This document shows, in pieces, positions 34,418 through 41,597 of a stretch of DNA of 64,000 bases (the stretch's first letter is position 1; every line of letters starts with the position of its first letter). The notes under the pieces are model-generated. The model worked only from the letters and a program-made list of their open reading frames with translations, had not been told where the DNA came from and made no database searches. The stretch covers positions 3,552,001 to 3,616,000 of the forward strand of contig OY761158.1 of assembly GCA_963664405.1 (NCBI GenBank). The letters are read 5' to 3'. Both the position numbers and the translations under genes were made by a program. Origin of the DNA: Thermoanaerobaculia bacterium. Lineage in GTDB: Bacteria; Acidobacteriota; Thermoanaerobaculia; Multivoradales; Multivoraceae.

Positions 34418-35050
34418 TCACCTACCGCTCTGTGTCTCGATGGAATAGGGCTCCGACGTCGCGTAGCCTTGCTGAATCGCGCGCTTGTCGACGAGAAACG
34501 GTGCAAGGTTGAACGTGTATTTGCGGACCTGTGTGTCCTCAAACCCGAAGGTCGCTCGGAGCCAAGTCCAGTAACCGCTGCCGCTCACATCCGACAACAT
34601 GATCGGATGGCCCTTCATGTCTGCGAGGGTCTTGATGTCGTCGCGCGGGTGAGTGATGAGGACTTGTGGGTCCTTCTGGAAGGAGGCCATGACAGCTTTC
34701 ACTGGCGCGCCGGCCTTCACCAGGTTGAGAGGGGTCACGTTATTCGACCCCAGACCAAAATCAGCGGCGCCCGCTGCCAAGAGTTGGGCCACATTGACGC
34801 CCGGACTACCTTGGCGAATCTTGACTTCTAGCCCGTGTTTTACATAGAGGCCGAGGGCCTGGGCCTGATAAAAACCGCCCTGCTCAGCCTGTGCCTTCCA
34901 ATCCGTTGCAAAATTTACCGTTGGAAGACCGGACGTAGTGGCAGGTGGCCGTTGCTTACAGCCGGACAGGTAAAGGCCGCAGGCCGCAAGAAAGAGGACG
35001 GCAAGTACCGCATAGATGGTGGTGTTGCGAATTGACATGAACCAGATCAC
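34418..35050 (-). pseudogene. NMT1/THI5-like ABC substrate-binding lipoprotein, C-terminally truncated
   Basis: Lipobox-like LSGC; FATDWKAQAEQGGFYQA, FQKDPQ, YTFNLAPF, QGYATSEP; stops at 210 aa in mid-domain; no ABC permease or ATPase follows. Confidence 0.7.
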
Positions 35051-35469
35051 CCTGTTACCAGTTTCTTGGACATAACCAGGACATTATGACCGTCTGTGCG
35101 GCGATACCCAATCGTATCCATGATCGTCTTGACAAAGTGCAGTCCAAGACCGCCGATCGGTCGATCGGTGAGTGGGCTCTCGAGGTCGGGAGGGTCGACG
35201 GCGAACGGATCGAAGGCCGCACCGTCGTCTTCCAACTCGACCGTGATCGACTCAGGGCCGAGGCTCAGAGTCAGGTCGATCGAGTGCTTCGTATTATCGG
35301 CAAATCCGTAGCTGATGGTATTCGTCATCAGCTCATCGAGAACCAATGTGAGCTGGTAACGCAGATCCTCGGAAAGGGAGTTTCGGGTGCAGAACTCGGC
35401 GACAACCGCTCCCATGTTCTCCAACTCCTGCATGCTGTTGCAGAATCTGGCAGCGACGACATCCTTCAC
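35047..35469 (-). CDS. RsbW/SpoIIAB-type anti-sigma factor Ser kinase (HATPase_c)
   Basis: N box DELMTN, G1 EDDG.AFDP, G2 GGLGL. Confidence 0.92.
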   Translation of the reverse strand: MKDVVAARFCNSMQELENMGAVVAEFCTRNSLSEDLRYQLTLVLDELMTNTISYGFADNTKHSIDLTLSLGPESITVELEDDGAAFDPFAVDPPDLESPLTDRPIGGLGLHFVKTIMDTIGYRRTDGHNVLVMSKKLVTG

Positions 35470-39306: not shown

Positions 39307-39407
39307 CGACCCATGATCGCGTCTTTCGGTCCCTTAGGATGCACCATACCTCAGCTTTCAGACCAGACGGTTGGTCGTTCTCTGGTATCTTCCAAAGCGA
39401 TCCAACC

Positions 39408-41597
39408 ATGAGCTCGAATGTCCTGGCGGAACTCGCACGCGACGTCGCATCGCCGAAGCTGCTCCCCTCCCTGAGCATCGGGCTGGTGAACGCCCTGATT
39501 CTCGTCATGCTCGAGGTTTCCTTCGCGGCGATGATCTTCTCCGCGCACCCCCACCTTGCCGCGAGAGCGGCCGGCTTGACCCTCTTCGGCACCTTCGTCC
39601 TCTGCCTCTTCATGGCCCTCACCAGCTCCTGTCGCACGGCTGTGACACTGCCGCAGGATGCCCCAACCGCTGCCCTAACCGTCGTCGTACCGGCCGTCGC
39701 CGTCCTCCTGGTCGGCGCATCCGACGATGCCCTCTTCATCACCGTGGCGACCGTGCTGGCCCTCTGCTCGGCCCTCACGGGCATCGCCTTCTGGGCCATC
39801 GGCCGGTTCGGGTTGGCCAACCTCTTCCGGTTCATCCCCTACCCCGTTGTCGCCGGGTTCCTGGCCGGTTCGGGCTGGTTGCTCTCGGTCGGTTCTATCG
39901 GCGTCATGTCCGGTGTTCCGTTGGAGCTCTCCACCCTCGGCCAGCTGGCCACCATTTCGAGTGCCTGGAAGTGGATGTCCGGTGGCCTGTTTGCCGTCTG
40001 CCTGTTCCTGATCATGCGCCGCTGGTCCCACTTTCTGGTCCTGCCCGGGGCACTCCTCGCCGGTGCTGGCCTCTATTACGCGGGCTTCTGGCTGGCCGGA
40101 ATGAGCCTCGAGGAGGCCGAGGCGAACGGTTTCCTGCTCACCGGTTTACCGGCTTCCGGGCTCTGGCCCGCCTTCGGCGCTTCCGACCTCTCGCTCATCG
40201 ACTGGCGGGCCGTGCTCTCCCAGGCTCCCGTCGCCTGCGCCGTGGCGCTGGTGGCCGTCGTCGGGATGCTCCTCAACCTGAGCGGGATCGAGTTGGCCTC
40301 CGGGATGGAGATGAAGCTGAACCGAGAGTTCCGCATGGTGGGACTGTCCAACTTGCTGGCCGGGATGGGCGGTTCCCTCCCCGGCTACCCAGCCCTCTCG
40401 CTGTCAATGCTCGGCCCGGCGGCCGGCGCAGATTCTCGCCTGTCGAGCGTCGTCGCCGCGCTCATCATCGGTGCCATCCTGTTCTTCGGAGGCGGGCTCC
40501 TCGGCTTCTTCCCCCAGCCGCTCCTAGGCGGCCTGCTCCTCGTGCTTGGCCTGTTCTTCCTCTCCGACTGGATCGTCGACACGCGCAAGCGCCTTCCGGT
40601 GGCCGACTACCTGCTGGTCGTGGCCATCGTCCTCGTCATCGGCCTGCGGGGATTCCTCGAGGGCGTCGTCTTCGGCATCGCGGCCACGGTCGTCATCTTC
40701 GTTGTCCGCTTCAGCCGCGTCTCGGTCGTCCACAACAGCTTTACCCTGATCGAGCGCCACAGCCTGAAGCCTCGCCCCATCCCGCAGCTTCACATTCTCT
40801 CCGCAGACGGGGAATCTGCCGTCGTCCACGAACTGTCCGGTTACATCTTCTTCGGCTCCGCCTCGTCCCTCATCGAACGGCTGGGCAAGGATCTGACCGA
40901 GAGAGGCGCCTCTCACGTCCTCCTCGACTTCGCTCGCGTCACGGGCTTCGATGCCTCGGCGGTGAACAACTTCCACCGCTTCATCCTTCGTGTCCGGGAG
41001 GTCGGGGCCCAGCTCGCCTTCTCGGCCACCCCTGCCGCGCTCACCGACGCACTTACCTCGGCTGTTCCCGTCGAGGCCATGAAATCGGTCCACTTCCAGC
41101 CCAGCCTTGACCACGCCCTCGAGTGGTGCGAGGACAGTCTCATTGAGCGGGCCCATCGCCGCATGGGCGAGGGCGGTCAGGACGAGCGCGGCGACCTCTT
41201 CGATCGTTCGGTCGACGGCCTCCTTGAACGGCTGAAGAGTCAGGAGAGCTACGAGGCCCTCCTCTCCAAGCTCCAGCCGTGGCTCGAGCGGCGCCAGTTC
41301 GAGGCTGGAAACACGGTCGTCGAAGCAGACGAGCCCCTCGAAGGTCTTCAACTCCTGATGACAGGAACGGCCACCGAGGTGAGCGCCTCCGGAGAACGCC
41401 TCCGGGTGCTTGATATCGGCGACATAATCGCTCCGACCGCGGCCTTCAGCAAGGTCCGGGTTGCCCACCGGGTCGTAGCCGACAATTTCCTCGTGACGCT
41501 TCTCCTGACCCCGGAGGCTCGGTTGCGCCTGGAGTCTGACGCGGCCGAGCTGGCCCTCGCCCTAGACCGCTACCTGCTCGGCAAAGACCCCCGCTAG
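39408..41597 (+). CDS. SulP/SLC26 family transporter with STAS and cyclic-nucleotide-binding domains
   Basis: PQDAP, FIPYPVVAGFLAG, STAS (LSGYIFFGSA...LDFARVTGFDASA), DHALEWCE, cNMP-like tail. Confidence 0.88.
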   Translation: MSSNVLAELARDVASPKLLPSLSIGLVNALILVMLEVSFAAMIFSAHPHLAARAAGLTLFGTFVLCLFMALTSSCRTAVTLPQDAPTAALTVVVPAVAVLLVGASDDALFITVATVLALCSALTGIAFWAIGRFGLANLFRFIPYPVVAGFLAGSGWLLSVGSIGVMSGVPLELSTLGQLATISSAWKWMSGGLFAVCLFLIMRRWSHFLVLPGALLAGAGLYYAGFWLAGMSLEEAEANGFLLTGLPASGLWPAFGASDLSLIDWRAVLSQAPVACAVALVAVVGMLLNLSGIELASGMEMKLNREFRMVGLSNLLAGMGGSLPGYPALSLSMLGPAAGADSRLSSVVAALIIGAILFFGGGLLGFFPQPLLGGLLLVLGLFFLSDWIVDTRKRLPVADYLLVVAIVLVIGLRGFLEGVVFGIAATVVIFVVRFSRVSVVHNSFTLIERHSLKPRPIPQLHILSADGESAVVHELSGYIFFGSASSLIERLGKDLTERGASHVLLDFARVTGFDASAVNNFHRFILRVREVGAQLAFSATPAALTDALTSAVPVEAMKSVHFQPSLDHALEWCEDSLIERAHRRMGEGGQDERGDLFDRSVDGLLERLKSQESYEALLSKLQPWLERRQFEAGNTVVEADEPLEGLQLLMTGTATEVSASGERLRVLDIGDIIAPTAAFSKVRVAHRVVADNFLVTLLLTPEARLRLESDAAELALALDRYLLGKDPR

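Follow-up and report, generated by a model that had tools for sequence, protein, structure and literature searches.

What does a bacterial partner-switching circuit control when no sigma factor is encoded beside it? The question is raised by a cluster of six genes at positions 34418-41597 of a 64,000-nucleotide stretch of the genome of a Thermoanaerobaculia bacterium (Acidobacteriota; assembly GCA_963664405.1, contig OY761158.1, positions 3,552,001 to 3,616,000), which is referred to as the window throughout this text. Partner switching is a textbook means of sigma factor control, and few outputs of another kind are known. In this cluster, an RsbW-type serine kinase, a membrane sensor phosphatase and a free STAS protein are encoded together with an NCS2/NAT-type permease, a SulP/SLC26 permease and an NMT1/SsuA-like lipoprotein binding protein. 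Because the NCS2 permease ends in an apparently dead anti-sigma-like domain and adjoins the STAS, kinase and phosphatase genes, the switch probably controls transport and not transcription. We estimate the probability of this reading, namely that the partner-switching module acts on the transporter instead of a sigma factor, at roughly 0.55.

The C-terminal tail of the permease, about 135 residues long, is the first element of the argument. Pfam alone scores its HATPase_c_2 match at 14 bits, short of the cut-off of 27.4, with an expectation (E) value of 0.053, and a BLASTP comparison of the tail with the neighboring kinase produced no match. The alignment by hhalign of ten tails with ten RsbW-type proteins reached a probability of 96.5% (E 9.7e-10, 129 columns), and when 401 Acidobacteriota genomes were searched with a profile built from five tails, seven weak matches to small stand-alone open reading frames (ORFs) appeared, all seven of which are clear HATPase_c_2 proteins (73-106 bits in Pfam). 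The AlphaFold2 model of the tail, with a predicted local distance difference test (pLDDT) value of 88 and a predicted template modeling (pTM) score of 0.82, has the form of a Bergerat-type alpha/beta sandwich like that of SpoIIAB. Its best Foldseek matches are SpoIIAB (1til, 1l0o, 1th8, 1tid), UsfX (8ih8, 8jzt) and RsbW (6m37), with E values of 2e-7 to 5e-6 and template modeling scores of 0.60-0.73. On this profile and fold evidence, which had to go beyond Pfam, the tail is recognized as an RsbW/SpoIIAB homologue, in agreement with the RsbW-like tail that an initial annotation, made from the sequence alone, had assigned to this permease.

In the active members of this family, the N-box Asn, the G1 Asp and the G2 glycine motif serve in ATP binding. 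In the register of the hhalign alignment, the tail of the window permease carries Ala at the N-box Asn column and Tyr at the G1 Asp column, and its GGLG lid is degenerate. The same picture emerges from 64 tails, none of which has Asn at the N-box column (Ala, Ser or Thr is found instead) or Asp at the G1 column (Tyr in 60 of them), and which have x-L-[AS]-G where the kinases have GGLG. The Glu, Asn, Asp and GGLG are kept in ten of ten stand-alone RsbW-type kinases; in this alignment, which includes the window kinase, its E46, N50, D81 and G106-G107-L108-G109 are invariant. Since all 64 relatives have lost the ATP-binding residues, the tail is classed as a pseudokinase which, judged by its residues, cannot act as a kinase. 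Near-invariant residues proper to the tail family are W34-G-A-R37, F71-D-E73, Y82, G84 and a C-terminal His (H139), and the corresponding motifs WGAR, FDE and terminal FDH are absent from RsbW-type proteins. The WGAR and FDE motifs and the C-terminal His may make contact with the membrane domain or with a ligand in a remodeled pocket.

The second element is the free STAS protein, which scores 86.4 bits against the NCBIfam model for anti-sigma factor antagonists (TIGR00377, cut-off 53.45). One motif, Y-I-S-S-[AS]-G-L-R, is common to 21 STAS proteins encoded beside tail-bearing permeases, and all 21 have both of its serines. The second of these serines, Ser55 in the window protein, aligns with the first serine of DSSGL in SpoIIAA (1th8, 1auz), which we take to be the residue phosphorylated by SpoIIAB. 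In terms of RsbU/V/W membership, the cluster thus has a STAS protein with an alignable, putatively phosphorylatable serine, and, by sequence, a HATPase_c_2 kinase with intact motifs and a SpoIIE-family PP2C phosphatase in overlapping genes. The phosphatase consists of a transmembrane segment, an outer domain of about 155 residues, a second transmembrane segment, HAMP, a coiled region and the PP2C domain of the SpoIIE family; its two hydrophobic segments (residues ~16-44 and 201-219) bracket residues ~45-200.

Co-folding of the tail with the free STAS protein was one of the checks suggested in the initial annotation. With input alignments of 64 rows for the tail and 21 rows for the STAS protein, three runs scored 0.78, 0.80 and 0.79 (0.79 is the value reported) and the best of three controls 0.00. 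This pass shows the likeness of the pair to solved complexes and does not by itself demonstrate binding of this copy. Of 80 solved complexes, 58 reached the mark, as did 2 of 110 mismatched pairs; contacts agreed between the runs to at least 97%, and the pLDDT of the partner was at least 89. The predicted interface joins STAS residues 54-56, 58-60 and 86-96 to tail residues 50, 53-54 and 93-117, with STAS residues 54-55 in contact with tail residues 50, 54 and 109-114. On the side of the tail, it is formed by the helix that carried the N-box and by the former ATP lid, so that in the model Ser55 points into the dead nucleotide pocket.

The third element comes from the genes around other tail-bearing permeases. 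We collected 9 loci from genomes and 80 from metagenomes, grouped them at 90% tail identity into 65 clusters, and counted the 37 with at least 4 kb of flanking sequence; six-frame ORFs within 5 kb were screened with hidden Markov models (HMMs) built from the STAS, PP2C and RsbW sequences of this analysis. A STAS gene was found within 5 kb at 22 of the 37 loci and within 700 nt at 13, in 11 of these on the same strand as the permease gene. PP2C genes occur within 5 kb at 17 loci and RsbW-type kinase genes at 13, the latter count leaving out a match at locus L032 which is a second tail-bearing permease. At least two of the three genes are present at 17/37 loci, all three at 11/37, and none at 13/37. 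Wherever both methods were applied, Pfam assignments of 306 neighboring ORFs at 35 loci agreed with those of the HMMs. The source genome (6.78 Mb) has 12 STAS, 13 HATPase_c_2 and 12 SpoIIE matches, and because of these gene densities about 0.02 genes per family and locus are expected by chance; the switch genes are thus enriched ~16- to 28-fold over the density of the source genome.

This enrichment holds at loci whose tails are less than 45% identical and in several gene orders. The stop codon of the STAS gene overlaps the permease start at L022 and L025, the STAS gene lies just downstream of the permease gene at L040 and L096, and L044 and L081 have STAS-PP2C-kinase-permease operons. Several loci have the STAS protein and the permease but no kinase or phosphatase (L025, L096), and the sensor modules of the PP2C proteins vary among loci (HAMP, 5TMR-LYT, dCache or GAF). 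Taken together, the gene neighborhoods suggest that the minimal conserved unit is a STAS protein plus a tail-bearing permease, which a kinase and a sensor phosphatase often join. Of the co-occurrence that the initial annotation had proposed to look for, the STAS, phosphatase and kinase genes did recur, whereas SulP was seen beside the permease at one of the 37 loci.

Sigma factors are the component of the classical circuit that was not found. The source genome has 22 Sigma70_r2 matches, none of them in the window and the nearest separated from the cluster by about 44 kb and 31 kb, which agrees with the absence of a sigma factor from the window as first described. None of the 306 neighboring ORFs at the 35 related loci belongs to a Sigma70 family according to Pfam, and the 54 sigma matches of five genomes all lie on contigs other than the one that bears the permease. 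A cognate sigma factor as a regular member of the cluster and as the sequestered target of an RsbU/V/W module, a finding that the initial annotation had set against its own proposal, was therefore looked for and not found in the window, at these loci or on these contigs. The core of STAS protein and permease, the frequent kinase and phosphatase, and the sigma factor never seen at the loci examined are read here as a partner switch that has moved onto a transporter, its receiving domain stripped of catalysis. Predictions from comparison and from structure lend good support to a switch that joins STAS protein and tail and has no sigma factor.

How such a switch might operate can be outlined as follows. 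The tail would have kept the STAS-binding surface of its family, its ATP-binding residues being gone. The free STAS protein, when unphosphorylated, would dock on the tail, its Ser55 turned toward the former nucleotide pocket, and docking would change the transport activity of the permease, up or down. The stand-alone RsbW-type kinase would phosphorylate Ser55 and thereby release the STAS protein, and the membrane-bound HAMP-PP2C phosphatase would remove the phosphate upon an extracytoplasmic signal. In effect, the STAS protein would alternate between the kinase and the tail of the transporter. We infer the binding itself, its dependence on phosphorylation, the effect on transport and the direction of the signal. 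As to the claim that transport is the output or input of the switch, the homology of the tail, the gene linkage and the absence of a sigma factor speak for it; the inclusion of SulP and of the binding-protein gene in the module is not supported.

Several observations weigh against this mechanism. The signal may flow to the transporter or from it, and the kinase could serve a sigma factor or other target encoded elsewhere in a genome with 22 sigma-70 genes. The most conserved residues of the tail (W34, G35, A36, R37, D72, E73 and H139) lie outside the predicted STAS interface, and the co-fold pass may reflect mere likeness, because the complexes SpoIIAB-SpoIIAA, RsbW-RsbV and UsfX-RsfB have been solved. 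No STAS, kinase or phosphatase gene was found within 5 kb at 13/37 loci with at least 4 kb of flank, or at 9/28 with at least 8 kb, and among the loci without switch genes are the transposase-flanked L004 and L005, where the closest relatives are encoded. The neighborhood counts rest on home-made HMMs and stop-to-stop ORFs, with Pfam applied at 35 loci. In the window itself, STAS and permease genes converge and are not co-transcribed.

The strongest alternative is tentative and clearly less probable than control of the transporter. Here, the permease would act as a transceptor on the input side: it would sense its substrate, the conformation of the tail would set the amount of STAS protein held at the membrane, and the free STAS protein would titrate a kinase that controls a sigma factor or other target elsewhere. 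The linkage and co-fold evidence applies to this scheme in the same way. The full-length model puts the end of the last transmembrane helix at residue 438 and the start of the first tail strand at residue 443, and a tail only about four residues past that helix could report a conformational change. Moreover, the stand-alone kinase keeps all its catalytic residues and resembles true anti-sigma factors, and the source genome contains, in addition to its sigma-70 genes, other STAS/RsbW/PP2C clusters, one of them about 4 kb from a sigma gene. A sensory permease is harder to reconcile with the 306 neighboring ORFs, among which neither a sigma factor nor another output gene recurs, with the fact that most modules already have a PP2C sensor, and with the loci at which STAS protein and permease stand by themselves.

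If the tail retained the role of its closest structural relatives, it might instead be a membrane-anchored anti-sigma factor, sequestering a sigma factor encoded elsewhere until the STAS protein frees it, much as SpoIIAB and RsbW do but minus the kinase activity. The closest folds are indeed anti-sigma factors, some of them solved with their sigma factor (1l0o, 8jzt). NCS2 proteins such as UraA and UapA are dimeric, as is SpoIIAB when it binds its sigma factor, which fits the same arrangement. We consider it unlikely, given that no sigma gene is linked to the permeases in the window, among the ORFs at related loci or on the permease contigs, and that the motifs WGAR, FDE and terminal FDH set the tail apart from RsbW-type proteins.

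It is improbable, too, that the tail is a structural or dimerization domain or a binder of a small ligand, beside which the partner-switch genes have no functional meaning. About a third of the informative loci do lack switch genes nearby, and the position of the most conserved residues away from the predicted STAS interface would be expected of such a domain; an enrichment of ~16- to 28-fold, found with tails less than 45% identical and in several gene orders, argues for a functional connection. Least probable of all is the full model of the initial annotation, in which the STAS domain of SulP and the free STAS protein compete for the NCS2 tail and couple two 7+7 transporters: the SulP and NCS2 genes are divergent and 101 nt apart here, SulP has a STAS domain, and other STAS-containing proteins lie beside the permease elsewhere (a ~430-residue STAS protein in an ABC operon and a STAS-PALP fusion), but of the 37 loci flanked by at least 4 kb, only the one in this window has SulP beside a tail-bearing permease (phmmer with the window protein), Sulfate_transp is absent from the 306 neighboring ORFs, and the SulP STAS domain, which aligns weakly to the profile of the neighboring STAS proteins (hhalign probability 15%), has Ala at the phospho-serine column and no GL motif. 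Membership of SulP in the module and phosphorylation of its STAS domain, as put forward at first, are accordingly not supported, the latter on a weak alignment.

Control of the transporter by the STAS protein being the preferred reading, the nature of the permease deserves attention. Its Xan_ur_permease (PF00860) match covers residues 25-405, and it passes the NCBIfam model NCS2_1 (NF037981) with 46.9 bits against a cut-off of 40. The full-length AlphaFold2 model (pLDDT 92.4, pTM 0.88) has the 14-helix 7+7 fold, and its membrane part resembles UapA (5i6c), UraA and SVCT1, with E values of about 1e-15; SLC26 structures are secondary fold matches. The permease is probably a nucleobase-like:cation symporter. 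Its substrate is uncertain, because it scores below the NCBIfam cut-offs for pbuX (TIGR03173, 225 vs 414 bits) and for the NCS2 superfamily (TIGR00801, 183 vs 292 bits) and because of a Ser in SNVGLSIATG, which we take to be the region of the NCS2 signature motif, at a position presumably occupied by Gln, Glu or Pro in characterized members. Downstream of the STAS-permease pair at one related locus (L025:8134-15064) lie genes for a GntR regulator, an M20 peptidase, a carbamoyltransferase, a pyridoxal-phosphate (PLP) enzyme, a MobA-like protein and a xanthine-dehydrogenase-type molybdoenzyme. These purine-catabolism genes hint at a purine-related substrate, for that one locus only.

The family to which this permease belongs is larger than simple searches suggest. 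A word-index homologue search found only 11 tail-bearing proteins and a search with a 3-sequence tail alignment only three close genome loci; a full HMM search with the tail profile over 1.84 billion cluster representatives (50%-identity clusters) was needed to reveal the family, with 735 tail-bearing cluster representatives at E <= 1e-3 and 451 at E <= 1e-10. Within the best 150 of the 735, the full-length proteins (~565-600 residues) have their tail at the C-terminus, and many shorter entries look like fragments from contig ends. Ten clusters carry the names xanthine permease XanP, solute carrier family 23 protein, purine/pyrimidine permease or NCS2 family symporter. Tail-bearing permeases span at least four phyla, their sources including Syntrophorhabdus, Cloacimonadota, Xanthobacteraceae and Acidobacteriota. 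In the sample of 401 Acidobacteriota genomes, seven have a full-length tail-bearing frame, and the family is patchy within the source lineage, since only one of 40 other close-relative genomes has the tail.

The closest copies of the permease, ~82% identical, are found in another family of the same phylum, and two of them (L004 and L005) are flanked by IS3-type and DDE transposase genes (L004:11848-13302; L005:7320-8530 and 10573-12027). Identity of this degree in another family, together with the transposase flanks, suggests lateral movement of the permease. Two genomes contain 240-residue frames (L026 and L027, about 9470-10320) which match only permease residues 7-96 and 334-509 and look, from these matches, like internally deleted, tail-truncated permease remnants. 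Tandem pairs of tail-bearing NCS2 genes occur on the same contig at L032, L038, L046, L047 and L099.

Other genes found beside tail-bearing permeases extend the range of protein architectures. At L047:2769-5117 and L088:4595-6310, a sensor (HAMP or GAF), a SpoIIE phosphatase and a HATPase_c_2 kinase are joined in one protein. The last gene of a kinase-phosphatase operon convergent with the permease gene (L022:10265-12679, also at L023) encodes an 804-residue protein with neither a Pfam match nor a hydrophobic segment, and a 715-residue protein with STAS, PALP and ACT domains is encoded directly upstream of a tail-bearing permease at L063:4297-6441. An ABC operon recurs upstream of tail-bearing permeases (L030:2-4707, L032:607-3901, L038:1550-6598, L088:3-4493); it encodes a PF04392 binding protein, a BPD_transp_2 permease, an ABC ATPase and a protein of ~416-473 residues with an N-terminal STAS domain, the remainder of which is unrecognized and mostly non-hydrophobic. 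This operon may represent a second STAS-regulated transporter. That the ~430-residue proteins with N-terminal STAS domains are themselves STAS-fused permeases was considered and rejected, as none has more than a single weakly hydrophobic segment and Pfam recognizes only STAS in them.

The coordinates of the cluster are collected in the table. All six genes named in the initial annotation were found within 34418-41597 by their Pfam matches, with corrections.

Table. Genes of the cluster and the tail domain of the NCS2 permease (positions in the window).
Feature	Position	Strand	Assignment and evidence
NMT1/SsuA-like lipoprotein binding-protein gene	34418-35050	-	NMT1 71.3 bits; 210 residues
RsbW-type serine kinase	35047-35469	-	HATPase_c_2 92 bits; 140 residues
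Membrane sensor phosphatase	35466-37112	-	HAMP 38.7 bits, SpoIIE 180.8 bits
Free STAS protein	37215-37559	+	Pfam STAS 68.1 bits; 114 residues
NCS2/NAT-type permease	37579-39306	-	Xan_ur_permease 181.8 bits; 575 residues; ~135-residue C-terminal tail
NCS2 tail domain, residues 437-575	37579-37998	-	predicted RsbW/SpoIIAB-like HATPase_c_2 pseudokinase
SulP/SLC26 permease	39408-41597	+	Sulfate_transp 82.3 bits, STAS 35.4 bits; frame open from 39276, ATG at 39408

The minus-strand genes for the phosphatase, the kinase and the binding protein overlap one another, the start of the kinase gene overlapping the stop of the phosphatase gene. The STAS gene is divergent from the phosphatase gene and separated from the convergent permease gene by a gap of 19 nt; its ATG lies within a longer open frame (36852-37559), and a predicted frame at 37175-37468 (+) between the phosphatase and permease genes is another frame, without a family match. 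To the left, the cluster is bordered by a complete ribosomal RNA (rRNA) operon (29071-34327; 16S, tRNA-Ile, tRNA-Ala, 23S, 5S), and to the right by genes for a short-chain dehydrogenase and a sodium:solute symporter. Purine biosynthesis genes (purQ-, purL-, purF-, purM- and purN-like by Pfam) occupy 22715-28818, directly upstream of the rRNA operon. A scan of 34200-41800 for sigma-70-like promoters, which is uninformative for this phylum, found none.

Two of the six genes were described more generously in the initial annotation than the data allow. SulP was said to have STAS and cNMP domains; the Sulfate_transp and STAS matches lie above their cut-offs, and the cNMP_binding match (21.9 bits, E 1.8e-4) falls below the Pfam cut-off of 27.5. 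No relevant literature was found on SulP proteins with cNMP domains. The NMT1-like gene, listed as a member of the module, is truncated at its 3' end and is the last gene of the phosphatase-kinase operon. Its 210-residue product matches positions 4-124 of the 216 of the NMT1 profile, and its residues 45-147 pair with residues 8-110 of a solved homologue 303 residues long (4nmy); ~130 C-terminal residues are missing from it. From the stop codon it is 91 nt to the end of the 5S rRNA (34327) and 54 nt to the strong, 14-bp terminator stem of the rRNA operon (34333-34364), and the truncation looks like the result of a rearrangement at this operon. A genome search with the NMT1 model did not bring up the missing part at another place, nor was a homologue of the binding protein found at the other loci, and the gene is probably a remnant and not a conserved member.

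If the STAS protein does control the permease, the significance would reach beyond this cluster. An anti-sigma domain would here have become a dead appendage of a secondary transporter, in hundreds of clusters from several phyla which are annotated only as xanthine permease or SLC23. Uptake of a solute would come under a new, fast form of post-translational control by an extracytoplasmic signal, and many orphan STAS/RsbW/PP2C clusters without a sigma factor would be accounted for. The arrangement would also mirror the unexplained STAS domain of SLC26, and the regulatory logic of both families would be open to testing by binding and uptake assays.

Among known systems, the closest are the Bacillus switches SpoIIAB-SpoIIAA and RsbW-RsbV with the phosphatases RsbU and SpoIIE: the same three families are involved, and the tail has the SpoIIAB fold and a similar predicted docking geometry. 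Unlike in Bacillus, there is no linked sigma factor, and the STAS-binding domain is present twice, as an active-type kinase and as a dead domain fused to a 14-helix permease. Partner switches with other outputs act on biofilm formation, secretion or a cyclase, via soluble partners. Examples are SypE/SypA of Vibrio fischeri, BtrW/BtrV of Bordetella, HsbA of Pseudomonas, SiaABCD and cyanobacterial modules (sections of PMC8256260 and PMC10120452). As in these, STAS phosphorylation would control a target other than a sigma factor; in contrast to them, the proposed target is a domain fused to a transporter. The sections consulted of the review PMC8256260 nowhere mention permease, xanthine or pseudokinase, and full-text literature searches turned up no account of a transporter, NCS2 or other, that carries an anti-sigma-like domain, subscription-only papers and supplements lying outside their scope.

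Regulation of a transporter by direct binding of a small soluble protein, as proposed here, has parallels in GlnK-AmtB, in inducer exclusion by EIIA(Glc) and in MlaB-MlaF. In the cases of GlnK-AmtB and EIIA(Glc), covalent modification decides binding, and glnK and amtB are co-transcribed. MlaB is itself a STAS protein and binds the ABC ATPase MlaF (sections of PMC7367683). Other protein families and docking sites are involved in all three, none of which has a HATPase-like receiver domain on the transporter. With UraA, UapA and XanQ, the permease shares the NCS2/NAT Pfam family and the fold, and differs from them in its tail of ~135 residues.

A further comparison is that with SLC26, which shares its architecture with SLC23 (sections of PMC6497670). 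Each of the two sister 7+7 families would bear one half of a switch, SLC26/SulP the STAS domain and this NCS2 subfamily the STAS receptor, and it is a long shot that the tail also docks other STAS domains, for instance that of an adjacent SulP, with the free STAS protein competing and the two transporters reciprocally coupled. Were that so, the STAS domains of bacterial SLC26 proteins would gain a concrete binding partner. Like SLC26/SulP, the tail-bearing NCS2 proteins are 7+7 permeases with a C-terminal cytoplasmic domain drawn from the partner-switching toolkit; unlike in SLC26/SulP, the fused domain is not STAS but its anti-sigma-like, STAS-binding partner.

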